A DNA stretch of 21,688 nucleotides from Okeania sp. (GTDB taxonomy: Bacteria; Cyanobacteriota; Cyanobacteriia; Cyanobacteriales; Microcoleaceae), in the NCBI RefSeq assembly GCF_035285525.1, contig NZ_JAYKGW010000027.1:1-21688 (forward strand). Reading direction: 5' to 3'. Positions within the stretch are counted from its first letter, which is position 1; every line of letters starts with the position of its first letter. Position numbers and translations under genes: made by a program. The notes under the pieces are model-generated. The model saw nothing but the letters and a program-made list of their open reading frames with translations. It did not search any database and was not told where the DNA came from. This document shows positions 2 through 20,165 of this stretch, piece by piece.

Positions 2-334
2 ATTACGGCGGCTTTTAATGTGAATATTTTATCTCATTTGAATTGGCGTTTTCAAGGAAATTTTGATATAAATTTATTCAGTCATAAAGCAATTTATAAT
101 GAGGCTGAAACTCAAATTGAAATGTATCTTTATTGCCAAGAAAATATTACCTTTTCTTTGAAAAATCTAGATTTAAAAGTTAGTTTTCAGGCAGGGGAAA
201 GTATCCTAACTGAAATTTCTCGTAAATTCGATTTAGAAGTTTTGCCAGGAGAACTTGAAGCGAAAGGATTAAAAGTTAAGAAAGTTTTGACAGACCCGAA
301 AAAGTGGTTTGGATTAATTCTTTGTCAAGTTTAA
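2..334 (+). CDS. egtD: L-histidine N-alpha-methyltransferase (EgtD family), 3' part only; the gene starts upstream of the window
   Basis: The frame is open from base 2 (ITAAFN precedes the tabulated ORF 20..334). The translation TAAFNVNILSHLN...IEMYL...FQAGESILTEISRKF...LTDPKKWFGLIL follows the conserved C-terminal layout of EgtD (AAFN.N.L, IEM.L, F.AGE..TE.S.KF, TDP..FGL.L). A sulfoxide synthase gene follows on the same strand. Confidence 0.85.
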   Translation: MTAAFNVNILSHLNWRFQGNFDINLFSHKAIYNEAETQIEMYLYCQENITFSLKNLDLKVSFQAGESILTEISRKFDLEVLPGELEAKGLKVKKVLTDPKKWFGLILCQV

Positions 335-675: not shown

Positions 676-2019
676 ATGAATCAGATCAAATCTACTAATC
701 CACCAAAAATTGATGGTTCTAAAACTAACAGTAACATCCGCCAATATATTCGAGAATATTTTCAGAATAGTTGGGAAATTGAAGACATTTTAATGAATAG
801 TTTAATAGCAGAAGAAACATTTTATTTAAACCCCGACTCTTTAAGAAATCCACTAATTTTTTATCTCGGACATTCGGCGGTTTTTTACATTAATAAATTA
901 ATCAGAGTAGAATTATTAGAAAAACGCCTTAATCCTAACTACGAAATATTATTTGAAATGGGGGTAGACCCAGAAAAACCAGAAGACTTAAATCAGGCGA
1001 TCGCTAACATTAATTGGCCGAAACTAGAAGATATTTGGCAATATCGAGAAAAAGTTTATCAAGTCATTTTAGACCTAATTGAAAAAACTCCTCTTAATCT
1101 TCCTATTCACCAAAATCATCCTCTTTGGGCGTTAATGATGAGTATTGAACATCAACGGATTCATATTGAAACTTCATCAATGTTGTTTCGGCAACTATCT
1201 GTAGAAAAATTAAAACATCCTCATAATTGGGAATATGCTCCTACTAATAATCAGATAATTAATAATGAAATGATAGAAGTTTCTGGAGGAGTTGTCAAAC
1301 TAGGAAAACCAGAAAATTATCCGACATTTGGTTGGGATATAGAATATGGCGATCGCCAAGTTGAAGTAGCTCCTTTTATGGCTAGTAAGTATTTAATTAC
1401 TAATGCAGAATTTCTGGAATTTGTTAAAGTTGGTGGTTACGAAAATCCAGATTATTGGAGTCAAGAAAGTTGGCTTTGGAAAACTGGAAATAATATTAAA
1501 TATCCCAAATTTTGGATAGTTGAAAATGGTAATTATAAATATCGAGCTATGTTTGATGAAATAGAATTACCTTTAGATTGGCCTGTAGAAGTTAATCATT
1601 ATGAAGCAATGGCTTATTGTTCTTGGCAAGGAGAAAATACTCGGTTAATGACTGAAGCTGAATATAATTTAGCAACTTATAGAAATGGTAAAGAAGTAGA
1701 AACAGATAATTATAATCTGAATTTTAAATTTGGTTCTCCTTCTCCTGTTGGTTACTTAGAAACTGCCAAAAATGAATCAGGATTATATGATTTGCGGGGT
1801 AATGTTTGGGAATGGTTAACTGATAAATTAAATCCTCTTTCTGGATTTAAAACTCATCAACTTTATGAAGATTATTCAGCTCCATTTTTTGATAATAGAC
1901 ATAATATGATGTTAGGAGGATGTTGGATAACTAACGGTACAGAAGCTTTGAAATATTATCGAAATTGGTTCCGTCCTAACTTTTATCAACACGCTGGTTT
2001 TAGAATAGTTCAGGGATAA
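676..2019 (+). CDS. egtB: Sulfoxide synthase, OvoA-like type without the C-terminal methyltransferase domain (cyanobacterial EgtB-type enzyme)
   Basis: 447 aa. The N-terminal DinB-like domain has candidate iron-ligand histidines in LIFYLGHSAVFYINKL and MMSIEHQRIHIETSSML. These motifs resemble OvoA more than actinobacterial EgtB. The C-terminal FGE-sulfatase-like domain shows LYDLRGNVWEWL and GGCW. It sits next to egtD. Confidence 0.85.
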   Translation: MNQIKSTNPPKIDGSKTNSNIRQYIREYFQNSWEIEDILMNSLIAEETFYLNPDSLRNPLIFYLGHSAVFYINKLIRVELLEKRLNPNYEILFEMGVDPEKPEDLNQAIANINWPKLEDIWQYREKVYQVILDLIEKTPLNLPIHQNHPLWALMMSIEHQRIHIETSSMLFRQLSVEKLKHPHNWEYAPTNNQIINNEMIEVSGGVVKLGKPENYPTFGWDIEYGDRQVEVAPFMASKYLITNAEFLEFVKVGGYENPDYWSQESWLWKTGNNIKYPKFWIVENGNYKYRAMFDEIELPLDWPVEVNHYEAMAYCSWQGENTRLMTEAEYNLATYRNGKEVETDNYNLNFKFGSPSPVGYLETAKNESGLYDLRGNVWEWLTDKLNPLSGFKTHQLYEDYSAPFFDNRHNMMLGGCWITNGTEALKYYRNWFRPNFYQHAGFRIVQG

Positions 2020-2041: not shown

Positions 2042-2501
2042 TAATAATTATTAGGTTGGTAAATTTTGTAATAAATTGAAGATTTTTTGCCTCCCCAAAA
2101 TTTGCTGGTTACTCAAACTTTAAATTTTTCATAATTGTCAATTATCAATTATCACAATTAATTATCGAATGGAGAATTAAAATGGCTGGAAATTTTTCAA
2201 ATGTATCTGAGAAAGAATCATTTATACCGGATATAAATTCGGGAAACGATGATATTAACACAACCTAGGAAAAGAGTAATGAAGAATGGTGGGACTGGTA
2301 TGTTTCCTGAGCTGAAAATATTTGTGGCTGAAAATTTAGTATAAGTTAAAAAAAAAGCTGGCTTCATTAATTTTTATTGTGCTTGAGCTGACTGCTGACT
2401 GCTAATAGCTAAATACTTACGTTTAAATTAATAACTTTAAGATGCTGTTGTTTGTGCAGAATATCGCAGAAAATACTTACTTTAATAAACATAGTAAAAC
2501 C

Positions 2502-3449
2502 ATGAGATTTATTAGCCACAAAACAGACTTTGCTTTCAAAAAAAATATTTGGCTCCACTGAGAGTAAAGATATTTTAATTAGTTTTTTGAATGCTTTAAT
2601 TCTGGTAAATCAACAATTCAAGATTTAGAAATAATCGACCCCTATACTCCAGGAGATACCATTAGTTTAAAAGATACTTATCTAGATGTAAGAGCTATTT
2701 TAAATGATGTCTCCAATGTAATAATTGAAATTCAGGTTTTAAACGTTCCCGCATTTGAAAAGCGAGTAGTTTATAATCTATGTAAAACTTATGGGAATCA
2801 ATTAGACACTGGAGAGGGATATCGAAGATTAAAACCAGTAATTGCTTTAACGATTACAGATTTTAAAATGTTTGAGGACACAGAACGATATATTAATCAT
2901 TTTGTGTTTAAAGAGAAAGAGAAATCATTTAATTATGTACATGAAGAAGTAGCAATGATATTTGTTGAATTACCAAAATTTCCGAAAAAATTAGAAGAGT
3001 TAGAAACTATCACACATAAATGGATTTATTTTGTAAAATCAGCTTCAAGTTTAGAAGTAATTCCCACAAATTTAGCAGAAATAAAAGAGATAGAAAAAGC
3101 TTTAAATATTGCTAATCTGGCAAATCTATCAAGAAAAGAATTAGAGGAAGTACACAAGCGGGAAGTATTTTTAGAAGACCGTGCAGGTCAAATTATTCTA
3201 GCTCTACAGGAGGGAAAAGAAGAAGGACTACAGCAAGGAATAGAGCAAGGGTTAGAAGCGGGTAAGTTGTCAATGCAAAGACTAATATTAGGTTAACTGG
3301 AGAGAAAATTTTCAGCAGAAATTCCTGCCATAATTAAAGATAATATTCAACAGTTATCCCTGGAAAAGTTAGAAAATTTAGGAAGAATAATTGATAATTT
3401 TAGTAGTTGAGAATATTTGTCTAACTGCTGCCATAAATCAGAAAAGTAG
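2502..3449 (+). pseudogene. Decayed Rpn-family recombination-promoting nuclease / PD-(D/E)XK putative transposase
   Basis: It starts MRFISHKTDFAFKK like the intact paralog at 19245-20165 (MRFISPKIDYVFKK), then loses frame in an A8 run (2538-2545). Homology continues in other frames (ESKDILISFLNAL, DTYLDVRAIL..IIEIQV) and in ORF 2868-3296 (VELPKF, KWIYF). An in-frame TAA at 3294 aligns with Q of the paralog (LIIRQLKKRF vs LILG*LERKF). An in-frame TGA follows at 3408. The C-terminal LEKLENLG matches IEELENLG. Confidence 0.85.
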
Positions 3450-3602: not shown

Positions 3603-3932
3603 ATGACTCAGAAAAAATTTTACCTATTAACTGACCCAAGTATTATTTGTTCTTATCTGGTATCTAAGTGGATTAAAGCTTTTGAAAAAATGCCAGAATT
3701 TCAAGGAATATTAGTAAAAGAGGAAGTTCCATCAGACAGAGTAATTAGAGAGAGGAAAACTTTTCATCAAAAATACTTTGGTCAAAAACACTTGACTGAT
3801 AAAATGTACGAATTATTAATTGATTTGTATCCTGATATAGATAGAACTGAAAGAGCAATGATCGAGCGATACGGAGTATCTCAGTATTCTACTACCGAGC
3901 ATTCTCAAACAATTTTCTTGGGAATAATTTGA
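3603..3932 (+). CDS. Formyltransferase-fold protein, N-terminal fragment (first half of a split gene)
   Basis: 109-aa ORF ending TIFLGII*. The stop overlaps the TTG start of the next ORF (TTGA, 3929-3932). Together the two ORFs make one formyltransferase-like domain (see finding). Confidence 0.55.
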   Translation: MTQKKFYLLTDPSIICSYLVSKWIKAFEKMPEFQGILVKEEVPSDRVIRERKTFHQKYFGQKHLTDKMYELLIDLYPDIDRTERAMIERYGVSQYSTTEHSQTIFLGII

Positions 3933-4453
3933 ATGGAAAATATGCTAAGAATTGGTTAATGGAAGTTGCTGAAAATTCCTCAGTATTCATTTTTGTTTGT
4001 GCTACTAAAATACTTAAATCTTGGTGGTTAGAAATAACTAAAAATCAAGTGTTTAATAGTCATACAGCTGTTCTACCTTATGCTCGTGGAATGTATGCGA
4101 TTGAGAATATGGCAATTAATAAAAATATTAACCAGTTTAGACAAGCAGCAGGGGTAACTATACATTATGTTGATGAAGGGGTAGATACAGGTTCAATAAT
4201 TAGAACAGAAAGAATAGTTGATCCGTTTCGCTTTAATTCCATTTGGGATTTAAAAGGATATTTATACCTTACCGAATTTGAGTTATACGTGAAAACTGCC
4301 CAAGATATTCTCAGCAACAATGAAACTATTCCTGCTGGAGTTTCACCGGATCCTAAATTGCTAGGTCCTAATTTTAGGATAAAAGACTTTACTCCAGAGA
4401 AACAAAAACAAGCAGAAGATGGTTATTTATGGATGAAAAATTCCTGGCGATAA
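3929..4453 (+). CDS. Formyltransferase-fold protein, C-terminal fragment carrying the catalytic motifs
   Basis: FNSHTAVLPYARG matches the N-x-H-x-S-L-L-P-x-x-R-G motif of Fmt/PurN-type formyltransferases. GVTIHYVDEGVDTGSII matches the G-x-T-x-H-x-x-x-x-x-D-x-G-x-I aspartate motif. The only start in the ORF track is TTG. This frame is open upstream back to 3851. Confidence 0.6.
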   Translation: MNGKYAKNWLMEVAENSSVFIFVCATKILKSWWLEITKNQVFNSHTAVLPYARGMYAIENMAINKNINQFRQAAGVTIHYVDEGVDTGSIIRTERIVDPFRFNSIWDLKGYLYLTEFELYVKTAQDILSNNETIPAGVSPDPKLLGPNFRIKDFTPEKQKQAEDGYLWMKNSWR

Positions 4454-4525
4454 TTTTATCTTATTTTAAGGTAAACTAAGTAAATATTCATTTAATTTTA
4501 ATTTTTTTTAGATGGGAAATAAACA

Positions 4526-4912
4526 ATGATTAAAGTTCAAAAAATACAAAACAAAGGGCGGGGTATTTTTGCGGTACAGGATATTCCGAAAGGAACATTA
4601 CTTGAAGTTGCTCCCACGGTAATTTTGCCACCTGAACAATTACAAACTCTGAATCAGACGAAAGTCTTAGATTATTATTTTGTACAACCATCAGAATATG
4701 CTACAGCTAAGAAAATAAAAGGATATTTGGTTTTAGGTTTAGCTTCTCTTTGTAATCATGGGGAAGACCCTAATTCTTATGTTGAATGGATTGAAGATGA
4801 AGTATGTGTATGGTCACATTTAATCACCAAAAAAGATATTAAAAATGGTGAGGAAGTTACCCTTTTCTACACCAATATTAATGAATATCCTGATGGTGGA
4901 ACTTTTGTTTAA
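4526..4912 (+). CDS. Small SET-domain methyltransferase
   Basis: 128 aa. GRGIFAVQDIPKGTLL (SET N-region), LASLCNHGEDPNS (NH.C.PN-type motif) and GEEVTLFY (post-SET E-E-L-T-x-x-Y type). Confidence 0.75.
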   Translation: MIKVQKIQNKGRGIFAVQDIPKGTLLEVAPTVILPPEQLQTLNQTKVLDYYFVQPSEYATAKKIKGYLVLGLASLCNHGEDPNSYVEWIEDEVCVWSHLITKKDIKNGEEVTLFYTNINEYPDGGTFV

Positions 4913-4924
4913 TAGATAGTAAGC

Positions 4925-4950
4925 ATTCAGCTATGAGTTCATAGCTGAAT
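4925..4950. repeat. Perfect 12-bp-arm palindrome of the dispersed AGCATTCAGC repeat family; possible terminator of the SET gene
   Basis: attcagctatga-gt-tcatagctgaat. Related half-sites occur at 5851, 5999-6015 and 16994. There is no clean T-run after it. Confidence 0.5.
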
Positions 4951-5049
4951 ACTTACCTTTGTTCAACCAAGATTAAGAAGCTTAACAAGATTAATTACTC
5001 CCAAATTTTTCTAACCATTAATCTAACTTTACCAAATAGATAAATTAAC

Positions 5050-5784
5050 ATGAACAATTCTCAAATTACATCATTAAAAGAATTTCAAACAACAGGATAC
5101 TTTTTGCAAGAAAATTTTATTTCTCAGACAGAATGCGATTCTTTATTACAACTAATTGCTGATTATCGCCAGACAAATTCTGTTCCTAAAATCTATCGCA
5201 ATGTTAAACCCATACCCTTAAGTTATTTTGTCATAGATGGAAAAAGAATTCAGTCTCAAATTCCAGAAGTTCAAAAATTATATGAAACTGTGAATCAAGT
5301 TATTAATAACTTCACAAATAAACAACTTTTTCCTTTACAAGATATTCAGGTAGGGTGCAATATTAATATTACTGAAAAAGGAGGTACATATCGCTGGCAT
5401 TATGACCGAAATGCTATTACAGCTCTTTTATATTTAAACAAAGTTGATGGAGGAGAAATTCAGCTTTACCCCAATTATAGAATTACTTTACCTGAAGCTA
5501 AATTTTCTAGATTTCAGAGTGTGATAGATCGGGTACAACAATTGAGTTTTTTTCGTCAAATCTTTGGCAAACAAATTATGATTAAACCTCAACCAGGTCT
5601 ACTATTAGTTATGGCTGGGGATAAATGTCTACATAGTGTTCGTCCAGTTACAGAAGAAAAGGAGCGAATTAATATTGTTATGGCTTACGATTTACCTAAT
5701 GCTAATTTTGTAGTTAAAAACCAACTTAATACTTATTTATATAGTTCAGAAAAGTTTGACAGTAAAGATCCAAATTACTCTTAA
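5050..5784 (+). CDS. 2OG-Fe(II) oxygenase, prolyl-4-hydroxylase-like
   Basis: 244 aa. YRWHYDRN (HxD iron motif), ITALLYLNKVDGGEIQLYP and the distal CLHSVRPV histidine, with ERINIVMAY downstream. Confidence 0.8.
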   Translation: MNNSQITSLKEFQTTGYFLQENFISQTECDSLLQLIADYRQTNSVPKIYRNVKPIPLSYFVIDGKRIQSQIPEVQKLYETVNQVINNFTNKQLFPLQDIQVGCNINITEKGGTYRWHYDRNAITALLYLNKVDGGEIQLYPNYRITLPEAKFSRFQSVIDRVQQLSFFRQIFGKQIMIKPQPGLLLVMAGDKCLHSVRPVTEEKERINIVMAYDLPNANFVVKNQLNTYLYSSEKFDSKDPNYS

Positions 5785-5850
5785 ATCTGGTATAGACTTA
5801 TGGCGAGCAAGATGCCCGCACTACAATAATTTTACCATTAAAATCTTGTC

Positions 5851-6015
5851 AGCATTCAGCCGTCAGCTATTAGCTAACAGTTATTCGTTTTATTCCATGA
5901 CAAAAGCTTTATTAATTGAGCTAGAAAAATATAGCTACAAAAGTCAAATCGAAAGTCTATATTAATTTAAACTTCATCCTTAAGCCCAGAATCTTATTGC
6001 TAATAGCTGAATGCT
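5851..6015. repeat. MITE-like unit bounded by inverted AGCATTCAGC...TATTAGC ends
   Basis: The left end agcattcagccgtcagctattagc (5851-5874) is the reverse complement of the right end gctaatagctgaatgct (5999-6015), apart from a 7-nt indel. It explains the doubtful ORF 5756-5965. Confidence 0.55.
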
Positions 6016-6049
6016 TTATATATCCAAAATATGCTTTAATAACTGATAA

Positions 6050-6556
6050 ATGATAACTGAAATGAAGCCAAATCCAATTCCACCAAAACCCGGTCAAGAA
6101 TCTGTATGGGATTATCCCCGTCCACCTCGTTTAGAAGATACAAATAAATCTATTCGAGTCATTTTTAATAATGTAGTTTTGGCTGAAACAAATAATGCCA
6201 AAAGATTATTAGAAACTAGCCATCCTCCTGGTTATTATATTCCTCCTAAAGATGTTAAAATAGAGTATTTAATTCCTAATCCCAGGAAAACTTTTTGTGA
6301 GTGGAAAGGTTATGCTTCCTATTGCGATGTTTCAGTAGGAGATAAATATGTAAATCATCCAGTCTGGCAATATTTAGACCCAACTCCTTATTTTTTACCT
6401 ATACAAGGATATTATAGTTTTTATGCTAATTTAATGGATGCTTGTTATGTCAATGATGAGTTAGTAAAACCTCAAGCTGGTAATCTTTATGGAGGATGGA
6501 TTACTTCTGATATTGTCGGACCTTTTAAAGGAGAACCAGGTACAAGAGGTTGGTAA
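6050..6556 (+). CDS. DUF427 domain protein
   Basis: 168 aa. ESVWDYPRPPRLE, ETSHPPGYYIPPKDV and FCEWKGYASYCDV are the signature stretches of DUF427 (PF04248-type). The start could be ATG 6050 or ATG 6062. Confidence 0.8.
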   Translation: MITEMKPNPIPPKPGQESVWDYPRPPRLEDTNKSIRVIFNNVVLAETNNAKRLLETSHPPGYYIPPKDVKIEYLIPNPRKTFCEWKGYASYCDVSVGDKYVNHPVWQYLDPTPYFLPIQGYYSFYANLMDACYVNDELVKPQAGNLYGGWITSDIVGPFKGEPGTRGW

Positions 6557-6748
6557 ATAATGAATAATTGATAATTTATAATTAATATTCAGTGGAAACT
6601 ACCGACTAATTACGACAAATTTATAAATCAAATTCTTAAGCAATATATTCTCAAAGCAGAACTGAAGCAATTTATTCTCGATAATCTCTTCTCTGACTTG
6701 AAAATACTGATGAATAATTTATTACAAAAATAAGCCATCGCTAGCTTT

Positions 6749-7623
6749 ATGCAAATTGATAAAAAAATGAACAATAATATTAATTTAATAACTGATAATT
6801 CTGAACTTTCAAAATCTTACTATCAACCAGAAAAATTAGAGCTGGATTCATGGTTTCAGGTAGCTCAGATAGATTACGAAAAATTAATTGAGCAATATTC
6901 ATTTAATAATCTATTTAAAGGATTTGCTAAAAATCAACTCAAACTTCTAGATATAGGATGTGGCAGTGCTAAATTTCCTAGTTTGCTAGACAAAAAACTT
7001 GATGGCAATATTCATTTATCAGCAGATTTGCTTGATATTTCAGAATACTCTCTACAGTTGGCAAAAAAACGGTTTGATAGTTGTCAGTATTTTAGTACAA
7101 ATTCAACCTACTTATCTGCTACTGAAAATCTTCAACAATTAGTTAAAAAAAACTAACTGCTACGATATTATATGGGCGATACATTCTCTTTATACTGTTG
7201 ATAAAAATAGAATGGCAGATGTCTATCTTTATTGTTTAGATTTATTAGATGATAATGGTAAGTTTTTAATTTACCAACCTGCTCAAACATCTTCTTACCA
7301 CAACTTATATGATTTTTTATTTTAGCAATTATCCAGAAGGAAAAAAATCTACATATTTTCTCAAATCTGATGAACACAAACAAATTTTGGATAGATTAGG
7401 AATAAATTATGATAATATTAGATTGAGTTTTTTTCACAGCATCAGTTTGGAAAGTATAAATGTACTTGAAATATATTTAAAATAATGTGTTTTTGATTAC
7501 ACATTAGATGTCTTAAATTTTTTTCAGCCTATATTACAAAAGTGTTTTGATAGAAAAAACAATCAATACAAGTTTGAGCAGATAGTTGATTTGATTATTA
7601 TTGAAAAAGCCAGTAATATTTAG
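6749..7623 (+). pseudogene. Class I SAM-dependent methyltransferase, disrupted by two frameshifts and one in-frame stop
   Basis: Motif I LKLLDIGCGSAKF lies in ORF 6749-7156, which ends in an A8 run (7145-7152). Homology continues in frame 0 from 7161 (YDIIWAIHSLYTVDKNRMADVYLYCLDLLDDNGKFLIY). A second shift occurs near the T-run at 7313-7322, giving NYPEGKKSTYFLKSDEHKQILDRLG. An in-frame TAA at 7483 is followed by CVFDYTLDVLNFF... up to TAG 7621-7623. Confidence 0.75.
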
Positions 7624-8557
7624 CAATATAAGGAAGATAACAAACAATGATAGAAATTCACAAAAAGCTGCGATCGCTAATTTTTTCTCAGACCCAAAAC
7701 TCAAACTCGTCAAGCTTAATGAGCAAGAATATATGGAGGGGTTAATTGCTTATCGCAGTCAAAATAATGAACAAGAAATGATGCTGGAAGCTACATTTCA
7801 GACTATAGAAAAATATAAGTCTTCACAAGAAAGCTACAGAATTTTGAGTATAGGTTGTGGCTGTGGAATTTTTGAGCAAGCTTTTTTAACAAAGCTCCTT
7901 GATTTGAACAAATATATTCATTTTGTTGGAGTAGACCCAAACAAAGTAGAGTGTATAAAAATACAAGAATGGTGTCATAAACTTAGTACATATAAACCAG
8001 ATAAATTTAGGTTTGAAATTCATCCTGTTACCTTAGAAAAATTTCAAGCACTTCAAACTTTTGACATTATTTTATTAATCCATTCATTTTACTATTTTTC
8101 AGAAATTACATCTTCTGTTGAGAAAGTTTATAAACTTATGGAAGAAGAAGGAATTGCAATTGCCACAATAAATTTAAAAAGACCAATAAGTGAACCTTAC
8201 TATTATGTAAATCAGCGATTTTATCAAAGACAGAGGTTTTATAGTGAAGATTTATATCGAGTTCTTTCTGAACAAAATATTTTTTTTCATCAAGAAACTA
8301 TAGAATCTCCAATAAATATTACAAATTGTTTTGAAAAAGATTCTCTATTGGGTAAATATTTACTGGATTTTCTAGTTGATGCTAATACGACATATTTTTC
8401 TCCTTCCCAATTACAATTATTGCTGGATTATTTTAGAACTAATTCCCAAAGGTTGAAAGGGGGAGAAATTATGATTCAAAATTCTATAGGCTTTTATTAT
8501 TTTCAGAAAAGTAAAGAACAAGAAATAAAAAAAGGGAGCCAAGAAAACTTAAAATAA
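7601..8557 (+). CDS. Histamine N-methyltransferase (HNMT)-like class I SAM methyltransferase
   Basis: 318 aa. It is collinear with animal HNMT as I remember that sequence. FFSD matches LFSD. RILSIGCGCGIFEQAFLTKL matches ILSIGGGAGEIDLQILSKV. FDIILLIHSFYYF matches FIHMIQMLYYV. ITNCF..LGKYLLDFLVD matches ISDCF..GDLLWDFLTE. The only upstream start is TTG 7601, which overlaps the end of the preceding pseudogene. Confidence 0.7.
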   Translation: MKKPVIFSNIRKITNNDRNSQKAAIANFFSDPKLKLVKLNEQEYMEGLIAYRSQNNEQEMMLEATFQTIEKYKSSQESYRILSIGCGCGIFEQAFLTKLLDLNKYIHFVGVDPNKVECIKIQEWCHKLSTYKPDKFRFEIHPVTLEKFQALQTFDIILLIHSFYYFSEITSSVEKVYKLMEEEGIAIATINLKRPISEPYYYVNQRFYQRQRFYSEDLYRVLSEQNIFFHQETIESPINITNCFEKDSLLGKYLLDFLVDANTTYFSPSQLQLLLDYFRTNSQRLKGGEIMIQNSIGFYYFQKSKEQEIKKGSQENLK

Positions 8558-8628
8558 CTATAGAAGCCTAAATTATTGTTATTGAGCAATATTTTGTAAG
8601 TAATTTTCAAGGTAAATGGAGCAAATTT

Positions 8629-8844
8629 ATGTTTGTAACAGGAATCAAAAAAGGTAAAATTATTGAGTTATTGGAGGAGGTAGATTTTCTCGATAATCAA
8701 GAGGTTTTAGTAGAAATTAAAAAGGTAGGTAATTTTTGGTCAGCTTTACAAGATTTGAGGGCAAGGGTAGATTTAGAAATTATTGATGATGATTCTTTTG
8801 AGAATTTACGAGATAAGTCACCAGGGAGAATGGTTGATTTATGA
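8629..8844 (+). CDS. Putative antitoxin, upstream partner of a PIN-domain toxin
   Basis: 71-aa ORF. Its TGA overlaps the ATG of the downstream PIN gene (ATGA at 8841-8844), a typical type II TA arrangement. Confidence 0.6.
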   Translation: MFVTGIKKGKIIELLEEVDFLDNQEVLVEIKKVGNFWSALQDLRARVDLEIIDDDSFENLRDKSPGRMVDL

Positions 8845-9137
8845 CACTAAAATATTTATTAGATACGAATATTTTATCTGAGATGAAACGCCCTTAACCT
8901 AATCAAAAAGTAATGGAAAAACTAAGGTTATGTAAACTGGAAATAGCAACTGCTACTGTGGTTGTACATGAATTATTGTACGGATGTTTTAGAATTGCTA
9001 AATCTAAAAAACGTCAAGATTTGGAAGATTATATAAATAATGTGATTTTAGCACAGTTACCTTTATTTAATTATGATTTAAAATCCGCACAATATCATGG
9101 ACAGGAAAGAGCAAGGTTATCTAAATTCAGCTATTAG
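8841..9137 (+). pseudogene. vapC: VapC-type PIN-domain toxin, inactivated by an in-frame TAA at 8895 and a 3' truncation
   Basis: The translation is MTLKYLLDTNILSEMKRP*PNQKVMEKL....HELLYG....LPLFNYDLKSAQYHGQERARLSK. This matches the VapC pattern LLDTNILSE..RP.PN..V, ..EL..G and FD..AA. The C-terminal G.PI...D..IAA part is absent. Confidence 0.75.
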
Positions 9138-9348
9138 TTTTTAGCACCTCTAGCTGTTGGCGCACCATTCCGCAGGAAAGCATTAGGATTGAACTACGAA
9201 ATGTTCTTTTTTTTATCCCCTTAAAATCAGTTATCAGTTAGTGGAAGGAGAGGAAAATAGGATTGATTCAAAAAATTAATAATTTACAAAAGATTATCAA
9301 TTATTCTTCCCTGTTCCCTGTTCCCTTTTTTCTGGAGATGTCTAGTAA

Positions 9349-10640
9349 TTAATCTATTAATCTATGAATCAAACTATGCCAAATTAAACCAATAATAATT
9401 AACCCTAAACCTACTAACCAAATTTCCTGCTCTACCCAAAAAGCTAAAAATAAACAAGCAGCTAAACCTACCCAACCTAACCATTGAGGATAAAGTCTTT
9501 CTGCTGGTGAAAGTTGGAGAGCAGCAAAATTAGTAATAGCATAATAAATCAAAACATTACAAGCACTAAAAGACCAAGTAGTTTTCACATCCCCTATTAA
9601 AACTAAAAAAGCGATCGCTACTCCCACAACTATCACCGCAACATAAGGTGTAGTTTCTCCACTATTTAATCTAGCAAAAATTTTAGGTACATCTCGTCGT
9701 CGTCCCATTGCTAACAAAACTCGCGATAAACCCAAAATCAGATTTAGCAATACTCCCAACATTGCCGTAATCGCACCAACCGCAATTAATTTAGGAATTA
9801 TAGGAACACCCAATCCAACTTGAGCAATAACTTCTAAAGGTGCAGCTAAACTAACATCTGCTTGAGATAATTTATCTATCACTTCTTTACCAACTACCAC
9901 CGTAACTACAGAAATAGAAATATATAACAAACAAGTGACAAATATCGTGAGAGCGATCGCTCTGGGAATAGTACGTCGGGGTTCCTTAACTTCCTCACCC
10001 AAAGTCGCAATCCGACCATAACCAGTGTAAGCAACAAACATTAAAGCAGCAGCTTGCAATAAAGATGGAATAGGTTCCTCGGCGCTCAAAAAAAGTGTGA
10101 TATTTTCTCCCCCAGACAAAACTACTTGAGGTACTCCTGCTACGATGAATACAGTTAAAGAAAATAATGTAATCGAAACAATAATAATATTAGTCACATT
10201 AGAACGACGAATCCCACTTAAGACAACTATTGTTAATATAACCACAGCAGTGACAGCAGTCAATACTAACCAAATTTGATTATTGATGCCAAAAACATGA
10301 AGTAAATAACCAGCAAAACCCAAAGCAGCAGTAGCAGCAGAAGCACTTTTTGCTAAGAGAAACATCCATCCAGCGATGAAACCTAACCAATGATTCAGAT
10401 ATTTGTAACCATATTCATAAGTACCGCCACTAACAGGATGATTTGCTGCTAACTGGGCGCTATTAAAAGCATTGCAAGTAGCAACAATAGCACCTATCGC
10501 CACCGAATAATTACAGATCGACCTGCAATACTAGCAGCAATACCAATGCTGACAAATACTCCAGTACCGACTATTGAACCTAAACCCATAAGGGTAGCGC
10601 CGAATACGCCAATTTCTCGTTTTAGTTTAGATGTAGACAT
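9349..10640 (-). pseudogene. APC-family amino acid permease with an N-terminal frameshift
   Basis: ORF 9349-10503 is a polytopic membrane protein (NAFNSAQLAANHPVSGGTYEYGYKYL, many hydrophobic helices). The true N-terminus MSTSKLKREIGVFGATLMGLGSIVGTGVFVSIGIAASIAGRSVII is encoded from ATG 10640 in another frame. That frame stops at 10494. The shift lies at about 10504-10530. Confidence 0.8.
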
Positions 10641-10860
10641 TTTCAGTTATTATTATTAGTCCAGTAGGGTGTGTTTCCGCTCTTAACTTTTCTGTTGTCT
10701 CATTATCTAGCCCTGGTTGTCGTTTGTTATGCTTCTGAATAGTTTACATCAGTCTCGTTGGCTAGTCAAGACTACCAAATACAGTAGGGCCGAATGGCAT
10801 TTCCTAAGGTCATGATCGATTCATGTCGCGCAGCGATACGCCCCTAAAAATAGAATAAAT

Positions 10861-10941
10861 AGCGATCGCCCCAAACCACCTTGACAAATTTAACTCCGTC
10901 GCGCTACTCTGAAAAAGAACTACTAGAAAACCAATCAAAAG
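10861..10941 (+). repeat. About 80-bp direct repeat, copy 1, containing a promoter-like TTGACA-18-TACTCT; abuts the antitoxin start
   Basis: agcgatcgccccaaaccaccTTGACAaatttaactccgtcgcgcTACTCTgaaaaagaactactagaaaaccaatcaaaa. TTGACA is at 10881-10886 and TACTCT at 10905-10910. Copy 2 is at 11672-11752. Confidence 0.6.
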
Positions 10942-11193
10942 ATGACCAAACTATTAGAAGAGGCGATCGCTGCCCTAGCCAAACTTCCAGAATCAGAACA
11001 AGATGGTATTGCCACTCTAATCCTAGAAAATATTGCCTCAGAAAAATCTCAGACACAACCTGTTACCAAACCCTTCTGGCAGAAAATCCAAGAAATAGGC
11101 GCTAAAGTACCTAAAGAGGAATGGGAAAAACTGCCAACAGATTTTGCTCGCAACTTTGAAAGCTATATGTATGGAACACCCAAAGAAGAATGA
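10942..11193 (+). CDS. Putative antitoxin of a PIN-toxin module
   Basis: 83 aa, MTKLLEEAIAALAKLPESEQDGIATLILENI. The stop overlaps the ATG of the PIN gene (ATGA at 11190-11193). Confidence 0.65.
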   Translation: MTKLLEEAIAALAKLPESEQDGIATLILENIASEKSQTQPVTKPFWQKIQEIGAKVPKEEWEKLPTDFARNFESYMYGTPKEE

Positions 11194-11606
11194 GACGAAT
11201 ATTTTTAGATACTTCTTATCTTCAAGCTCTCGCAGACGAACGCGACGATTTACACCATAAGGCGATTACTGTCTCCGAAAGTCAAGGTACATAAGTTGGC
11301 ATAACTACCGAGATGGTACTAACGGAGCTACTAAACGCCTTATCTAACCGAGGAGAATATCTGCGACAAGTGGCAATAGATATTGTTGAAACTTTGCGTG
11401 CCGCTGCAAATATAGAAATTATTCCCCAAAGTAGCCAACAGTTTGAGAAGGCAATGAAATTTTACCAACAACGATTGGATAAAGGCTATAGTCTTACCGA
11501 CTGTGCCTCTATGCTAGTGATGAAAGAAGAAAGTGTATGGGAAATAATGACTTACGATCGCCATTTTATCCAAGAAGGATTTAATGCCTTACTCAGAGAT
11601 GATTAG
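11190..11606 (+). pseudogene. PIN-domain toxin with an in-frame TAA at 11292-11294
   Basis: The N-terminal part MRRIFLDTSYLQALADERDDLHHKAITVSESQGT*VGITTE is in the same frame as ORF 11313-11606 (MVLTELLNAL...SLTDCASM...TYDRHF). PIN acidic positions are recognisable (FLDTS, TTEMVLTE, LTDC, YDRHF). Confidence 0.75.
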
Positions 11607-11671
11607 CTAGTAATCAATGGCCTAAAACTTTTGGGATATGAAAAGCGATCGCTTTCCGGAAAATAGTAGAG

Positions 11672-11752
11672 AGCGATCGCCCCTCAACTACCTTGAAAAA
11701 ATTAACCCCGTCGCTCTACTCTGAAAAAGAACTACTAGAAAATCAATTAAAA
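11672..11752 (+). repeat. About 80-bp direct repeat, copy 2 (TTGAAA-18-TACTCT), not followed by any gene
   Basis: agcgatcgcccctcaactaccTTGAAAaaattaaccccgtcgctcTACTCTgaaaaagaactactagaaaatcaattaaaa. It is roughly 85 percent identical to copy 1 by eye. Repeat-derived sequence follows it. Confidence 0.6.
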
Positions 11753-11778
11753 TCTGGACTTACACGGGAGGCGCTATG

Positions 11779-12098
11779 TATAGAACCCATTTGGGATCAT
11801 GGAGACACAGAAGGACACGGGGAGGCGGGGAGGCCGGGGATCGAGGACAGGGTGACACCCTCTCTCGGCCTGGTGTGTCTCCTCCTCTGGTGTTTCTTCA
11901 AGAACCTGCGTCTCCGCGTCTATTTTTACAGCGGTTTTCATTACGGTTCCCGAAAAATCAGTAAACCACAGTAGGGACGTTGCATAACAAAAATGCTTTT
12001 CATGTCGCGCAGCGAAACGTCCCTACAAGATTTTGGTGATGATGATGTGGTTCATTCATTTGAAAAGCGCTGTAAATAGATCCCAAATGGCTTCTATA
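11779..12098. mobile_element. 320-bp MITE-like element with 20-bp terminal inverted repeats and a strikingly GC-rich structured core
   Basis: tatagaacccatttgggatc (11779-11798) matches the reverse complement of gatcccaaatggcttctata (12079-12098) at 19 of 20 positions. The core 11801-11882 is GC-rich, with ggagacaca pairing to tgtgtctcc. A second hairpin is gtagggacgtt...aacgtccctac (11971-12025). Confidence 0.6.
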
Positions 12099-12301
12099 TA
12101 GTCTTGGTGCGTTACGAGATCAGCTTTTTCCTTTCGGTGCGGAATGCTACGCAAAGGGACTGCTTTGCTACGCACATAAAACGCATTCATGTCGGCGACA
12201 GCCATCAACGGAGTTATGCGCTAGCTAAACATGTTCCCTAAACCGCGGAAACACACCCTACCAATAGCTGAAACCGCCGATCGCTGATAACTGAAATGAC
12301 T

Positions 12302-13732
12302 TCAGACTTCAGGGGTATCTCCACCAACAACAACATTTTTAATACGCAAACTTGGTCCTCCACAACCAACAGATAAACCATCTTGCCCACCTTTCCCGCA
12401 ACCACCAGACTCATCCCAATCAAAATCATCAGCGATCGCTTCAATATCTGCTAAAGTATTAAACACATTTCCTGAAAGAGTCACATCCCGCACAGGTTCA
12501 GCTAACTCACCATTTCTGATCATCCACGCTTCCCCAGCACTAAAAGTAAACATTTCTCCATTAGTCATGCCACCCAACCAGTTTCGAGCATAAACTCCTT
12601 CCTTAATATCAGCAAATAAATCTGAAACGGGAGTATTTCCCGGAGCTATCCAAGTATTAGTCATCCTGACTATAGGTGGATAATGATAATCCAGACAACG
12701 AGCATTCCCTGTAGGTGTCTCCCCCAACTTCCCGGCAGTTTCCCGTGAATGCAAACGTCCGACCAAAACCCCATCTTCAATTAATTGAGTAGTTGTACCT
12801 AAAGTACCTTCATCATCATAAATATAACTACCTCGATGTACTTCTCCCTCTTCTCCACTTAAAATAGATGGCACTATCGCACCATCAAATATTTGTAAAT
12901 TCTCAGGACCAAATCTCCGACCAATGGTCATAACCTCTAATAAATCGGGATTTTCGTATGACATATCTGCTTCCGAGAGATGACCAAAAGCTTCGTGAAC
13001 AAATAGACCTGTGAGAATAGGGTCAATAACCACAGTATAGGTATTACCATGAACGATGGGCAAAGCTAGAGAATTAACAGCTCTTTCCGCAGCACTACGA
13101 ACTTGACTGTCCAAATTAATTAAATCTTCATAAGCTTTACGAGAACCCGTAGTTTCCCTACCTGTTTGTACGGTTTCCCCATTCCTGGCCGTAGCAGCAA
13201 AGCGCATTTCTATATCTGTCCAAGATTGTTCAAGCATAGTTCCTTCCGATGTAGCGAGAATAATTTTTTGGGTACTGTCTCCATAACGCACCAATACAGT
13301 AGTAATTCGAGGATCGACACTCCGTAATACTTGGCCATAATGTTCGCAGAGTTCTTTTTTCTCAGCTAAAGGTATGTGACGGGGGTTTTTACCTGTGAGG
13401 GAGATTGTATTAGTTGCTTGAATAATAGGTATAGGAGCAAGAATGGTTTTTTCTTCTCCAATGAGAATGGCCGCAGCGATCGCCTCTTCTACTCTATCTT
13501 TCAAGGTCGATATTTGATTAAAGCTGGCAAAACCCCAAGCTCCTTTGTAGCAAGCTCGAACTTGACCACCAATGGAGATGCCTTCACTGAGGGTTTCTAT
13601 TTTGTGGCCTCGCAAGAGAATATTTGTTCCTTGGGACTCTTCTAGACGAATGGCCAAATAGTCTACTTGAGAACTATAATTAGTAAGTAGGTCAGATAAT
13701 ATATTTTTGGTTTCAGTTATTGATATGGGCAT
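12302..13732 (-). CDS. tldD: TldD-type metalloprotease (TldD/PmbA family)
   Basis: 476 aa. It has the HEAFGHLSEAD zinc motif (HExxxH) characteristic of TldD, a glycine-rich C-terminus (GGCGKGGQ..GCGGPSLR) and a typical length. Confidence 0.88.
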   Translation of the reverse strand: MPISITETKNILSDLLTNYSSQVDYLAIRLEESQGTNILLRGHKIETLSEGISIGGQVRACYKGAWGFASFNQISTLKDRVEEAIAAAILIGEEKTILAPIPIIQATNTISLTGKNPRHIPLAEKKELCEHYGQVLRSVDPRITTVLVRYGDSTQKIILATSEGTMLEQSWTDIEMRFAATARNGETVQTGRETTGSRKAYEDLINLDSQVRSAAERAVNSLALPIVHGNTYTVVIDPILTGLFVHEAFGHLSEADMSYENPDLLEVMTIGRRFGPENLQIFDGAIVPSILSGEEGEVHRGSYIYDDEGTLGTTTQLIEDGVLVGRLHSRETAGKLGETPTGNARCLDYHYPPIVRMTNTWIAPGNTPVSDLFADIKEGVYARNWLGGMTNGEMFTFSAGEAWMIRNGELAEPVRDVTLSGNVFNTLADIEAIADDFDWDESGGCGKGGQDGLSVGCGGPSLRIKNVVVGGDTPEV

Positions 13733-19244: not shown

Positions 19245-20165
19245 TTACTGATGCAGCCAATTTTCTAAATCAGTTATGCTATTAAAATCCAAGAAGTCTT
19301 CTCCCAAATTTTCTAATTCTTCAATAGTTAAATTTTTAATCTTGCTCATAGTTTCTGGAGTTATTTCCCCAAAACGCTTTTTGAGTTGACGTATTATTAA
19401 AGCGATCGCCTCATCTTTTCTCCCTTCTTGTTTACCTTCCTGTTTACCTTCTTCTTTAGCAAAAGTTATTTTTCCCCTTTCATCTTGTAATGTCATTGCC
19501 CGATATTGTGCTACTTCTAATTCTTCTGGACTCATACCTGCTTGGTTCGCCAAATTTAGAGCTAATTCTATTTCTGATATTTCTGCTAAAGAAGCAGGAA
19601 TATCATCGAAACTAGAAGCTTCTTTCAGGAAATAAATCCATTTATCTGCTAAACTTTCTAATTCTGAGAGTTCTTTTTTAAATTTCGGTAATTCCACAAA
19701 TACTAATAGTAATTCCTCATCATCCAAAAATTCAAAATTGTCAATTTTATCTTTAAATACAAATTGATTAATAATTCTCTGGTTTTTTTCAAACAGAATA
19801 AAATCGGTAATTGTCACACCTATAACTGGTTTGAGTCTCATATAATCATCAGCAACTTTTAATTGATTAGCATATCCTTTGGCTACGTTATAAAGTACCC
19901 GTTTAGTAAAGTTTGTCATGGATGATACTTGCATTTCAATCATCACAATTTTTCCATCAGCTAAGACTGCTTTTACATCCAAATAAGTGTCTTTTAAAGT
20001 GAACACTTTCCCAGGATTATAAGGATTAATAATGGTTAAAGATTGAATAGTTTTTTCTCCATTGTAAATTACAGCATTGAGGAAACTAATTAAGATATCT
20101 GTACTTTCTTCAGAGCCAAAAACTTTTTTGAATACATAATCTATTTTCGGGCTAATAAATCTCAT
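19245..20165 (-). CDS. Rpn-family recombination-promoting nuclease / PD-(D/E)XK putative transposase, intact
   Basis: 306 aa. MRFISPKIDYVFKKVFG, DTYLDVKAVLADGKIVMIEMQV (D...E-x-Q/K nuclease core), FVELPKF, KWIYFLK and a charged C-terminal tail are typical of the YhgA/Rpn (TIGR01784-like) family. Confidence 0.85.
   Translation of the reverse strand: MRFISPKIDYVFKKVFGSEESTDILISFLNAVIYNGEKTIQSLTIINPYNPGKVFTLKDTYLDVKAVLADGKIVMIEMQVSSMTNFTKRVLYNVAKGYANQLKVADDYMRLKPVIGVTITDFILFEKNQRIINQFVFKDKIDNFEFLDDEELLLVFVELPKFKKELSELESLADKWIYFLKEASSFDDIPASLAEISEIELALNLANQAGMSPEELEVAQYRAMTLQDERGKITFAKEEGKQEGKQEGRKDEAIALIIRQLKKRFGEITPETMSKIKNLTIEELENLGEDFLDFNSITDLENWLHQ

Follow-up and report, generated by a model that had tools for sequence, protein, structure and literature searches.

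A relative of histamine N-methyltransferase encoded in cyanobacterial ergothioneine clusters, with a putative role in tailoring hercynine or ergothioneine

The window, meaning the whole stretch of DNA that was analysed, comprises 21,688 nucleotides of an Okeania sp. contig (NZ_JAYKGW010000027.1). It contains the following genes and features around an open reading frame (ORF) for a protein related to histamine N-methyltransferase (HNMT).

5 to 331, forward strand: C-terminal part of EgtD (histidine N-alpha-trimethyltransferase, Methyltransf_33), truncated by the window start
676 to 2019, forward strand: EgtB-IV-type sulfoxide synthase of OvoA-like lineage, 447 aa, with an NWF motif and without a methyltransferase domain
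3603 to 4453, forward strand: frameshifted formyltransferase-like gene, in pieces at 3603-3923 and 3938-4450
4526 to 4912, forward strand: small SET-domain protein, 128 aa, conserved in the cluster
5050 to 5784, forward strand: 2OG-Fe(II) oxygenase, 244 aa
6050 to 6556, forward strand: DUF427 protein, 168 aa
6764 to 7622, forward strand: pseudogene of a 289-aa class I methyltransferase (MT289), in three frames with two frameshifts
7601 to 8557, forward strand: HNMT-like class I SAM methyltransferase ORF, 318 aa when read from a TTG, as in the ORF listing
7630 to 7636, forward strand: Shine-Dalgarno-like AAGGAAG, read from the sequence, ending 10 nt 5' of the ancestral ATG
7647 to 7649, forward strand: ancestral ATG, placed by comparison with orthologues and now +1 out of frame
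9349 to 10637, reverse strand: amino-acid permease gene, convergent with the HNMT-like gene, with a 1-nt deletion near 10506

The formyltransferase-like gene is conserved in the cluster and forms one 288-aa ORF in Okeania hirsuta (L010). The 2OG-Fe(II) oxygenase gene is intact in the Dapis cluster and a fragment in the Trichodesmium cluster, and the permease gene is syntenic in Okeania, Trichodesmium and Dapis. Across loci, the most constant companion of egt and HNMT-like genes was the DUF427 gene. The decayed methyltransferase that an earlier note on this DNA had placed directly upstream of the HNMT-like gene is real: its pieces (6764-7150, 7143-7316 and 7315-7620) each lie in a different frame, whereas O. 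hirsuta has the gene intact as one 289-aa ORF, and three other loci (L009, L007 and L033) each gave one full-length match. MT289 was considered as a paralogue of the HNMT-like gene and rejected, as hhalign aligned the two over the generic core only (62%, 155 columns). No PDB match was found for MT289. The generic similarity and the lack of a PDB match together mark it as a different methyltransferase from the HNMT-like protein.

The synthase in the window scored 663 bits against the EgtB-IV structure PDB 8vih compared to 359 bits against OvoA (8khq). It matched the ovoA N-terminal model TIGR04344 of NCBIfam at 597 bits, and its motif is NWF, as in EgtB-IV enzymes that accept hercynine, rather than the (Y/F)AF of OvoA. 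The description of this synthase as OvoA-type in the earlier note is thus correct as to the N-terminal model, but its identity by bit score, motif and the presence of EgtD is EgtB-IV. Since EgtD lies immediately upstream of an EgtB-IV, the cluster is of the ergothioneine type (C2 sulfur on hercynine) and not of the ovothiol type. The egt neighbourhood that had been proposed for the HNMT-like gene is therefore genuine, and it is conserved across genera. The EgtD fragment and the 447-aa synthase represent the cyanobacterial two-gene EgtD and EgtB-IV pathway to ergothioneine (Liao & Seebeck 2017, cited in PMC8433421 and PMC11030361; PDB 8vih). As described, that pathway includes no further HNMT-like methyltransferase, whereas the clusters described here combine the EgtD/EgtB-IV core with DUF427, MurL-like, SET, formyltransferase-like and 2OG genes and with one to four HNMT-like genes.

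The portion of the HNMT-like ORF that is conserved among orthologues starts at ~7655 and begins NSQKAAIANFFSD. In a single-sequence phmmer search of all PDB sequences, the protein matched human HNMT at E=1e-7 (query 66-300, chain 41-289), and the runner-up matches had E values of ~1. When a profile of 18 family members was used, HNMT was found in the PDB at 2.6e-12 and the second-best methyltransferase at ~1e-4; the family profile search also recovered deuterostome proteins labelled 'histamine N-methyltransferase-like'. Alignment with human HNMT by hhalign (probability 96%, E 3e-9) extended over 266 columns including the N-terminal lid. The AlphaFold model (pLDDT 87, pTM 0.82) had human HNMT as all of its top five Foldseek matches in the PDB (E 4e-22 to 2e-19, TM 0.69-0.77 over 280-299 columns), and the next fold followed at E 1e-12 with a TM of ~0.5. 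The predicted fold has two domains, a Rossmann methyltransferase domain and a substrate-binding domain made up of N-terminal helices, an insertion and C-terminal strands. Similarity to HNMT was thus collinear over the full length and exceeded that to other class I methyltransferases. Judged by sequence and predicted fold, the product of 7601 to 8557 is a member of the HNMT family over its whole length, as the earlier note had recognised from its collinearity with animal HNMT. All five motifs named there are present and aligned with human HNMT by hhalign (cyanobacterial/human: NFFSD/LFSD, ILSIGCGCG/ILSIGGGAG, LIHSFYYF/MIQMLYYV, ITNCF/ISDCF and YLLDFL/LLWDFL).

The Pfam matches of the protein were all generic class I families (Methyltransf_12/23/31/25/11), and the NCBIfam scan gave weak matches to UbiG, BioC and CmoB. 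Neither library returned an HNMT-specific model, so both are silent on the HNMT question; although the Pfam hits are generic, the specific similarity to HNMT was found by the other searches, and the outcome that the earlier note named as refuting its reading, generic families without any specific HNMT similarity, did not arise. The Pfam scan gave no match to PF10017 (Methyltransf_33, EgtD). With generic matches only, and with the true EgtD encoded by the separate gene at 5 to 331, the HNMT-like protein is not EgtD. NCBIfam returned no match of the OvoA C-terminal or OvsM type at E<=0.01, and full-length OvoA (8khq) was not among the 35 PDB profile matches at E<=1 or the top 50 Foldseek matches.

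Compared with human HNMT (EC 2.1.1.8; PDB 1jqd, 1jqe and 2aot-2aox), the cyanobacterial protein is collinear over ~270 residues at 20-24% identity and shares the two-domain architecture in its predicted fold (TM 0.77). Equivalents of motif I, of the acidic ribose-binding residue and of the N-terminal lid (FSD, Y15 and E17) are conserved, and the lid differs by a nine-residue insertion. Unlike its human counterpart, the gene is bacterial, is found among ergothioneine genes and often occurs as tandem copies. Residues were counted in 18 family sequences aligned to human HNMT. In motif I (ILSIGCGCG), G85 and G89 are invariant and G87 is present in 17 of the 18 sequences. The ribose-binding residue, D112, aligns with HNMT E89 at the end of strand 2 and is D or E throughout (18/18). 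Both the GxGxG of motif I and the acidic residue ending strand 2, which together mark a SAM-binding site, are therefore in place, and we regard family membership, the predicted fold and the SAM motifs as established.

In the substrate pocket, HNMT Y15 corresponds to Y44 (18/18), E28 to E57 (17/18), Y146/Y147 to Y164/Y165, and F243 to F257 (17/18). HNMT uses Glu28, Gln143 and Asn283 as a polar active-site triad around the acceptor imidazole (PMC9867436). At the Q143 position, the family has His in 16 sequences and Asn in two; at the N283 position, the window copy has Asn and the family as a whole H, N, T or S. In place of HNMT Asp193, which reportedly binds the amino group of histamine, 15 of the 18 sequences have Arg or Lys, two have Gln and one has Glu, in a column that is aligned beside a gap and hence less certain. 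This replacement makes histamine an unlikely substrate, and a basic residue at this position fits a substrate bearing a carboxylate. By the same position, with the alignment gap adjoining it, the family would probably fall outside histamine N-methyltransferase proper (EC 2.1.1.8), in which the residue is acidic. The comparison of histamine-binding residues that the earlier note had proposed thus had a mixed outcome: the equivalents of E28, Y15, Y146/Y147 and F243 are kept, but Q143 and Asp193 are replaced and N283 is variable.

Close homologues (>=45% identity) were confined to Okeania, Trichodesmium, Dapis, Moorena, Oscillatoria, Hormoscilla and related cyanobacteria and frequently formed tandem arrays of two to four copies. 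Intact orthologues include that of Trichodesmium erythraeum IMS101 (NC_008312.1, ~131,093-131,992; L014 9983-10882) and those of L005 and L022, and Okeania SIO2C9 has four paralogues. The wider bacterial HNMT branch comprised 293 clusters at E<=1e-10 in the profile search. Synteny was surveyed by tblastn mapping of 30-odd loci from one genome-collection scan; the Psychrobacter loci (L026-L032), which had weak generic methyltransferase matches only, were left out. Where at least 5 kb of upstream flank was available, EgtD and/or EgtB was encoded within 10 kb of the HNMT-like gene at 13 of 14 loci. The neighbouring EgtB was of type IV or type I. At three loci (L005, L006 and L022), EgtD, EgtB-IV and the methyltransferase form a tight trio with gaps of 43-121 nt, while the HNMT-like gene comes after EgtC and a type I-lineage EgtB in Oscillatoria (L001) and, judged by homology, in Hormoscilla (L019). 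As both settings occur, the association spans two sulfoxide-synthase lineages and several gene orders. Linkage to egtD/egtB, the mark of an accessory gene of an ergothioneine cluster, thus recurs across taxa, and the conserved egt synteny is established. Two copies on one contig (L002 and L020) belong to an island rich in methyltransferase genes and adjoining an eCIS locus, where egt genes are absent within 10 kb, and no egt context was found around the distant Rivularia homologues P0037 and P0042.

The copy in the window differs from its orthologues at the start of the gene. The TTG at 7601, which the earlier note gave as the apparent start, does overlap the upstream pseudogene, as described there (the pseudogene ends in a TAG at 7620-7622). 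One base, a T, is deleted in codon 3, just past the ancestral ATG at 7647, giving ATGATAGA-AATTCA where the orthologues have ATGATAGATAATTCA, and the frame that opens at this ATG ends after 33 codons. The AAGGAAG element in front of the ancestral ATG is conserved in three loci (L007, L033 and L021), whereas the TTG, 46 nt 5' of that ATG, has no recognisable ribosome-binding site. Upstream of Met45 there is no in-frame ATG or GTG, and translation could begin only at this TTG or at the internal ATG of Met45, which would delete the conserved N-terminal lid. From these sequence comparisons, we conclude that the TTG start is an artefact of the 1-nt deletion and not the native start. The dN/dS ratio between the window copy and its closest orthologue was 0.35, compared to 0.33-0.44 for pairs of intact orthologues; pairs with L008 and L009c were dropped because alignment offsets inflated dN. 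This suggests that the gene was under purifying selection until recently. Prolonged neutral decay was considered and set aside, there being no sign of it in a ratio that resembles those of intact pairs.

At least three genes neighbouring the HNMT-like gene have frameshifts as well, which could mean either that this copy has lost activity or that the assembly contains erroneous indels. If the indel is real, the window copy is probably inactive or poorly expressed. We give an even chance to the stronger reading that it is a freshly frameshifted pseudogene in a decaying accessory cluster and has no function now. This would explain the deletion past the native ATG with no in-frame ATG or GTG before Met45, and the presence of Q293 where 17 of 18 relatives have Pro. 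It would also agree with the frameshifts that break MT289 (two), the formyltransferase-like gene and the permease gene (one each), with the absence of the MurL-like gene and with a PhyH fragment and a PIN toxin gene containing a stop codon in the neighbourhood. Against it, the other 300 codons are fully open, dN/dS is not above the range of intact orthologues, the TTG leaves the entire conserved sequence translatable, and the indels could be assembly errors. A dead copy in the window would be compatible with any of the functions proposed below for the intact orthologues.

For the family, we lean modestly towards a role as SAM-dependent HNMT-family methyltransferases that tailor hercynine or ergothioneine in cyanobacterial egt clusters, with the window copy probably inactive or poorly expressed. 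In this proposal, an HNMT-family clade limited to marine and benthic filamentous cyanobacteria would have been recruited into ergothioneine clusters with either EgtD and EgtB-IV or EgtD, EgtC and EgtB-I. The enzyme would methylate the imidazole of hercynine or ergothioneine with SAM as the donor. HNMT and avian carnosine N-methyltransferase suggest by analogy that the target is a ring nitrogen, the exocyclic thione sulfur being less probable. Substrate, methylated atom and product are what we infer here, and a methylated hercynine or ergothioneine derivative is a plausible product in view of the gene context. Ergothioneine exists mainly as the thione, and sulfur is its most nucleophilic atom; ring N-methylation is thus not chemically guaranteed. 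The clusters also carry SET, MT289/MT200, MurL-like, DUF427 and 2OG genes, and the true substrate could be an intermediate of greater complexity. Against a tailoring role, two of the three polar active-site residues of HNMT differ, and the L002/L020 copies and the distant Rivularia homologues are outside egt contexts.

Two known systems offer parallels. The avian HNMT-like carnosine N-methyltransferase reportedly functions in anserine synthesis, methylating the imidazole of a histidine-containing zwitterion and not histamine. By analogy, it is the closest functional precedent for an imidazole substrate of the amino-acid type; it comes from animals, acts on a dipeptide and is likened here by function, not by sequence. 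In ovothiol and ovoselenol biosynthesis, OvoC (OvoA's C-terminal domain) and the stand-alone OvsM act as N-pi-methyltransferases (PMC11030361, PMC12631010). These use SAM to methylate the imidazole of a chalcogen-substituted histidine, a logic that our proposal shares, and are encoded in or beside the gene for the sulfoxide or selenoxide synthase. Their methyltransferase lineage is a different one, for which no specific similarity to the HNMT-like protein was found, and they act on 5-thio- or 5-selenohistidine, outside the hercynine (C2) pathway.

OvsM, a stand-alone N-pi-methyltransferase of the ovoselenol pathway (PMC11030361), lends some support to the suggestion of the earlier note that the enzyme supplies ring methylation of the ovothiol type. 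It would then replace the C-terminal domain missing from the synthase, which does match TIGR04344, and yield an ovothiol-like N-pi-methyl-5-thiohistidine. We rejected the enzyme as a substitute for the OvoA methyltransferase domain and consider such a route very improbable: the synthase is EgtB-IV by bit score and NWF motif with EgtD directly upstream, the methyltransferase of Oscillatoria follows an EgtC and type I EgtB pair, and the NCBIfam and PDB profile searches place the protein outside the OvoA C-terminal and OvsM types. A methyltransferase acting on the sulfur of ergothioneine would fit the egt synteny equally well. An HNMT-type pocket would in this case offer the 2-thione sulfur to SAM, giving S-methyl-ergothioneine; the thione/thiolate sulfur is the best nucleophile of ergothioneine, and two of the three HNMT residues that orient the ring nitrogen are altered. 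To our knowledge, the characterised HNMT-family enzymes (HNMT and avian carnosine N-methyltransferase) are all N-methyltransferases of imidazole rings, and E57, the equivalent of E28, is retained and would hydrogen-bond the ring N-H. S-methylation is thus possible but unlikely.

The substrate could also have nothing to do with thiohistidines (it might, for example, be a different amine or heterocycle), with the gene hitch-hiking alongside egt in an accessory island of variable content. This island is a mosaic that includes transposase-like PDDEXK_2 genes, remnants of toxin-antitoxin systems and numerous pseudogenes, and both the two L002/L020 copies, with no egt gene within 10 kb, and the distant homologues in unrelated contexts agree with such a history. 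But adjacency has been kept in at least six genera despite differing gene orders and orientations and two EgtB lineages, and hitch-hiking would not be expected to yield tight trios of EgtD, EgtB and methyltransferase genes. We therefore regard it as quite unlikely.

Returning to the tailoring of hercynine or ergothioneine, we tentatively suggest, as a possibility short of an even chance, that Trichodesmium, Okeania, Dapis, Moorena, Oscillatoria and Hormoscilla make a hitherto undescribed derivative of ergothioneine or hercynine, methylated on a ring nitrogen (or N,N'-dimethylated or S-methylated), via the egt-recruited HNMT-family enzyme. Our literature searches found nothing relevant connecting HNMT-like enzymes, or Trichodesmium, with ergothioneine, and no report of an ergothioneine-tailoring methyltransferase, including one forming S-methyl-ergothioneine. 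Few enzymes are known to modify thiohistidines beyond the core pathway; according to a 2025 paper, before an N-acetyltransferase was found, no enzymes were known for 5-thiohistidine derivatives except ovothiol A (PMC12631010). If the suggestion is true, the enzyme would be the first methyltransferase dedicated to tailoring ergothioneine, and the large bacterial HNMT branch would gain its first assigned function. The window copy is of lesser value in this respect because it is apparently disabled. The presence of a conserved HNMT-type gene in the egt clusters of nitrogen-fixing and bloom-forming cyanobacteria of global importance would point to an unrecognised metabolite derived from ergothioneine, and the tandem paralogues, up to four, could give different regiochemistries. 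A function for the bacterial branch would also bear on the origin of the animal enzyme that inactivates histamine.

The gene under study has the following position.

7601..8557 (+): HNMT-like methyltransferase ORF, 318 aa from a TTG

The earlier note had described this protein as similar to animal histamine N-methyltransferase (HNMT) and had named five motifs, at the N-terminus, in motif I, at LIHSFYYF and at the C-terminus, every one of which was found in the ORF. The Pfam matches of the ORF, among them Methyltransf_12 (34.6 bits) and Methyltransf_23 (30.3 bits), were all to generic families of class I methyltransferases, and NCBIfam gave weak, sub-threshold matches to UbiG, BioC and CmoB. 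No HNMT-specific model was among these matches, so the two scans left the HNMT question undecided. A phmmer search of the window protein against all PDB sequences returned human HNMT (1jqe and 1jqd) at E=1e-7, spanning residues 66-300 of the query and 41-289 of the chain, with the following PDB matches at E of about 1. When the profile of an alignment of the window protein and 17 homologues (A1, 18 sequences) was searched against the PDB, HNMT was matched at E=2.6e-12 and other methyltransferases at 1e-4 or worse, so the similarity was to HNMT specifically. Alignment of A1 by hhalign to an HNMT sequence identical to 1jqd over residues 1-292 gave 96% probability and an E of 3e-9 over 266 columns, and covered the N-terminal lid, where NFFSD pairs with LFSD and, past an insertion of nine residues, Y44 pairs with Y15, E46 with E17 and E57 with E28. 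The AlphaFold2 model derived from A1 was confident, with a mean pLDDT of 87.3 and a pTM of 0.82. The five top Foldseek matches of this model in the PDB were all human HNMT (E 4e-22 to 2e-19, TM 0.69-0.77, 280-299 columns), and the next fold followed at E 1e-12 and TM of about 0.5. Across 1.84 billion representative proteins, an exhaustive search with the profile found 293 clusters at E<=1e-10, including Ptychodera and Branchiostoma proteins that NCBI names 'histamine N-methyltransferase-like', an unnamed Anneissia protein scoring 227 bits to human HNMT, and members from Alphaproteobacteria, from Acidobacteriota and from further cyanobacteria. Collectively, the sequence searches and the predicted structure confirm the HNMT-like identity noted earlier and place the window protein in a broad HNMT-like family, most of which is uncharacterised, with animal HNMT as its closest characterised protein.

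HNMT active-site residues were transferred to A1 through the hhalign alignment and counted over the 18 sequences.

Active-site residues of HNMT and their counterparts in the window protein
Motif I glycines: window G85, G87, G89; G85 and G89 18/18, G87 17/18
HNMT E89 (acidic, ribose-binding): window D112; D or E 18/18
HNMT Y15: window Y44; 18/18
HNMT E28: window E57; 17/18
HNMT Y146 and Y147: window Y164 and Y165; 14/18 and 15/18
HNMT F243: window F257; 17/18
HNMT Q143: window H161; His 16/18, Asn 2/18
HNMT N283: window N294; H, N, T or S in the family
HNMT D193: window R210; Arg or Lys 15/18, with a gap adjoining the aligned position

Asp193 of HNMT, the residue that binds the amino group of histamine, is thus aligned with a mostly basic position. 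Of the HNMT polar triad, Glu28, Gln143 and Asn283 (PMC9867436), Glu28 alone is kept. Read from these alignments, the pocket appears to be of an imidazole type adapted to a carboxylate-bearing substrate rather than to a free amine. The window protein has Gln at position 293, where 17/18 relatives in A1 have Pro.

The window opens with the C-terminus of EgtD (bases 1-331), 61% identical to residues 233-341 of an Oscillatoria EgtD, and a sulfoxide synthase gene follows.

676..2019: sulfoxide synthase, 447 aa, matching the ovoA N-terminal model at 597 bits

Among PDB entries the synthase scored 663 bits to 'Sulfoxide synthase EgtB-IV' (8vih) and 359 bits to OvoA (8khq). Its C-terminal end reads ...YYRNWFRPNF; NWF is the signature of hercynine-accepting EgtB-IV, which makes the C2-S bond on hercynine, and (Y/F)AF that of OvoA (Kayrouz et al.). 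By its sequence the cluster is therefore assigned to the ergothioneine type, and the ovothiol framing of the earlier note is not retained. The OvoA C-terminal domain and the OvsM N-pi-methyltransferases are functional analogues from another methyltransferase lineage, and searches of NCBIfam, PDB profiles and Foldseek found no specific similarity of the window enzyme to them. The known avian HNMT-like carnosine N-methyltransferase is among its closest functional analogues.

A word-indexed search found 33 homologues, often several per contig and all in filamentous cyanobacteria (Okeania, Dapis, Moorena and Oscillatoria). A one-genome-per-species scan added Trichodesmium erythraeum IMS101, a Trichodesmium MAG, Hormoscilla, Moorena bouillonii, UBA2566 and Microcoleaceae MAGs. 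Placement of the cluster proteins on all loci by tblastn revealed a recurrent order of EgtD, EgtB-IV, an optional formyltransferase-like and SET pair, an optional 2OG oxygenase, DUF427, an optional class I methyltransferase, a MurL-like gene and one to four tandem HNMT-like genes, followed by an amino-acid permease and TldD on the opposite strand. Among the 14 distinct loci whose upstream sequence reaches 5 kb or more, 13 had EgtD and/or EgtB within 10 kb, in keeping with the egt neighbourhood described previously. In three loci (L005, L006 and L022) EgtD, EgtB-IV and the HNMT-like gene are tightly packed, with gaps of 43-121 nt. The Moorena methyltransferase is divergent from EgtD and EgtB-IV, and in Oscillatoria SIO1A7 the HNMT-like gene comes immediately after EgtD, a MurL-like gene, a methyltransferase, EgtC and an EgtB of the type I lineage (best PDB match 4x8b at 244 bits, EgtB-IV at 114 bits). 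Homologues of the Oscillatoria EgtC and EgtB (73% and 67% identity) lie upstream in the Hormoscilla locus L019. The linkage therefore outlasts both rearrangement and a change of synthase lineage, and this persistence argues for a functional tie to the hercynine/ergothioneine pathway on comparative grounds. The exception is L002 (same contig as L020), with no egt gene within 10 kb, and no egt genes were found beside the more distant Rivularia family members P0037 and P0042.

The L002 island (4433..13427, uncultured cyanobacterium MFD01721), whose methyltransferase genes number at least five, contains two HNMT-like copies and is flanked by contractile-injection-system (eCIS) genes: sheath, gp19-like tube, Pvc16_N and eCIS_core. 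Four tandem copies occur in L009 (8108..11838, Okeania sp. SIO2C9), where the permease-gene 3' end is also present in three tandem repeats (12271..13295). Tandem copies are also listed for L010, L011, L013, L019 and L002, with two in several.

DUF427 (Pfam NTP_transf_9; window 6050..6556) accompanies the egt and HNMT-like genes more constantly than any other neighbour, being found also in L001, L003, L004, L010, L011, L014-L016, L021, L023 and L025; in Oscillatoria it also forms a pair with a second type-I-like sulfoxide synthase (L001 700..1980). DUF427 may have an uncharacterised role in thiohistidine metabolism. The MurL-like gene (about 450 aa; L001 5620..6975) lies directly upstream of HNMT-like genes in L001, L003, L008-L010, L012, L015, L017, L022 and L025, is split in L010 and L015, and is a fragment in T. 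erythraeum. Its precomputed Pfam annotation is MurL_N and MurL_epimerase_C; the L001 protein, scanned anew against Pfam, had no match. Downstream of EgtB-IV, a small SET-domain gene repeatedly accompanies the formyltransferase-like gene, which encodes 288 aa in its intact form (window 3603..4912, L009, L010, L015, L021 and L005).

The family has a predicted HNMT-type fold, an HNMT-type SAM site and a conserved linkage to egt genes. We propose that SAM would be bound in the Rossmann domain and that the imidazole of hercynine or ergothioneine would be held in the pocket under the lid, where E57 and H161 would flank the ring and the basic residue at 210 would pair with the substrate carboxylate. 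One methyl group would then be transferred, and family precedent points to a ring nitrogen as the acceptor. Chemically, an attractive alternative is the thione sulfur of ergothioneine, and tandem paralogues may have different regiochemistry. We found no literature linking an HNMT-like enzyme with ergothioneine or describing an ergothioneine-tailoring methyltransferase. Both the fold and the chemistry of the proposed function are known; the pathway context would be new, and its interest rests mainly on the conserved family and cluster, not on the window locus.

Orthologues in A1 begin M-I/M-D/N-S-Q-K-S-A-I-A-N-F-F-S-D, and the window has a corresponding start.

7647-7649: corresponding ATG, with AAGGAAG upstream at 7630-7636

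DNA alignment (window ATGATAGA-AATTCA; ATGATAGATAATTCA in L007, L033, L009 and L010) revealed a 1-nt deletion in codon 3, which puts this ATG out of frame, in a reading frame that ends after 33 codons. Upstream, the coding frame is by chance open as far as the TTG at 7601, which the earlier note had given as the apparent start. No ATG/GTG or purine-rich ribosome-binding site serving this TTG was found. The database gene call (P0001, 274 aa) starts at Met45, which would cut off part of the conserved lid, since residues 24-44 are strongly conserved in A1 (S30, L34, L36, V37, L39, E43 and Y44 invariant). The HNMT-like identity and egt context of the earlier interpretation stand, and its ovothiol framing and TTG start do not. 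The remainder of the ORF is intact. The dN/dS of the window copy against its closest orthologue was 0.35, compared with 0.33-0.44 for intact orthologue pairs and lower values for the flanking permease (0.16) and TldD (0.12) genes. The window copy is probably crippled.

The overlap with a decayed upstream methyltransferase, also noticed earlier, was confirmed: that 289-aa gene is split across three frames, and its stop (TAG, 7620-7622) leaves 22 nt shared with the TTG ORF. The formyltransferase-like gene, a single 288-aa ORF in L010, is split, and the permease gene (9349..10637, -) has a 1-nt deletion near 10506 (ATTATT-CGG, compared with ATTATTGCGG in three orthologues) that cuts the first ~46 codons off from a 384-aa ORF. 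Two explanations remain: decay of this accessory cluster in the genome, or indel errors in the assembly. No MurL-like gene is present, and of PhyH there is only a 49-residue fragment; EgtB-IV, SET, 2OG, DUF427 and TldD are intact.

Between the methyltransferase and permease genes, a PIN/VapC-like toxin frame (MTLKYLLDTNILSEMKRP, a stop, then ORF 8913..9137) comes after an antitoxin-like small ORF (8629..8844). This region (8629..9137) looks like a decayed VapBC-type toxin-antitoxin pair in its sequence; its frames had no Pfam match. The PhyH fragment and a shortened PDDEXK_2 transposase-like ORF (2182..2319 and 2868..3296) separate EgtB-IV from the rest of the cluster, and a PDDEXK_2 and DUF4351 gene at 19245..20165 (-) is intact. 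The PhyH fragment and the PDDEXK_2 ORFs are consistent with mobile-element-driven rearrangement of the locus.
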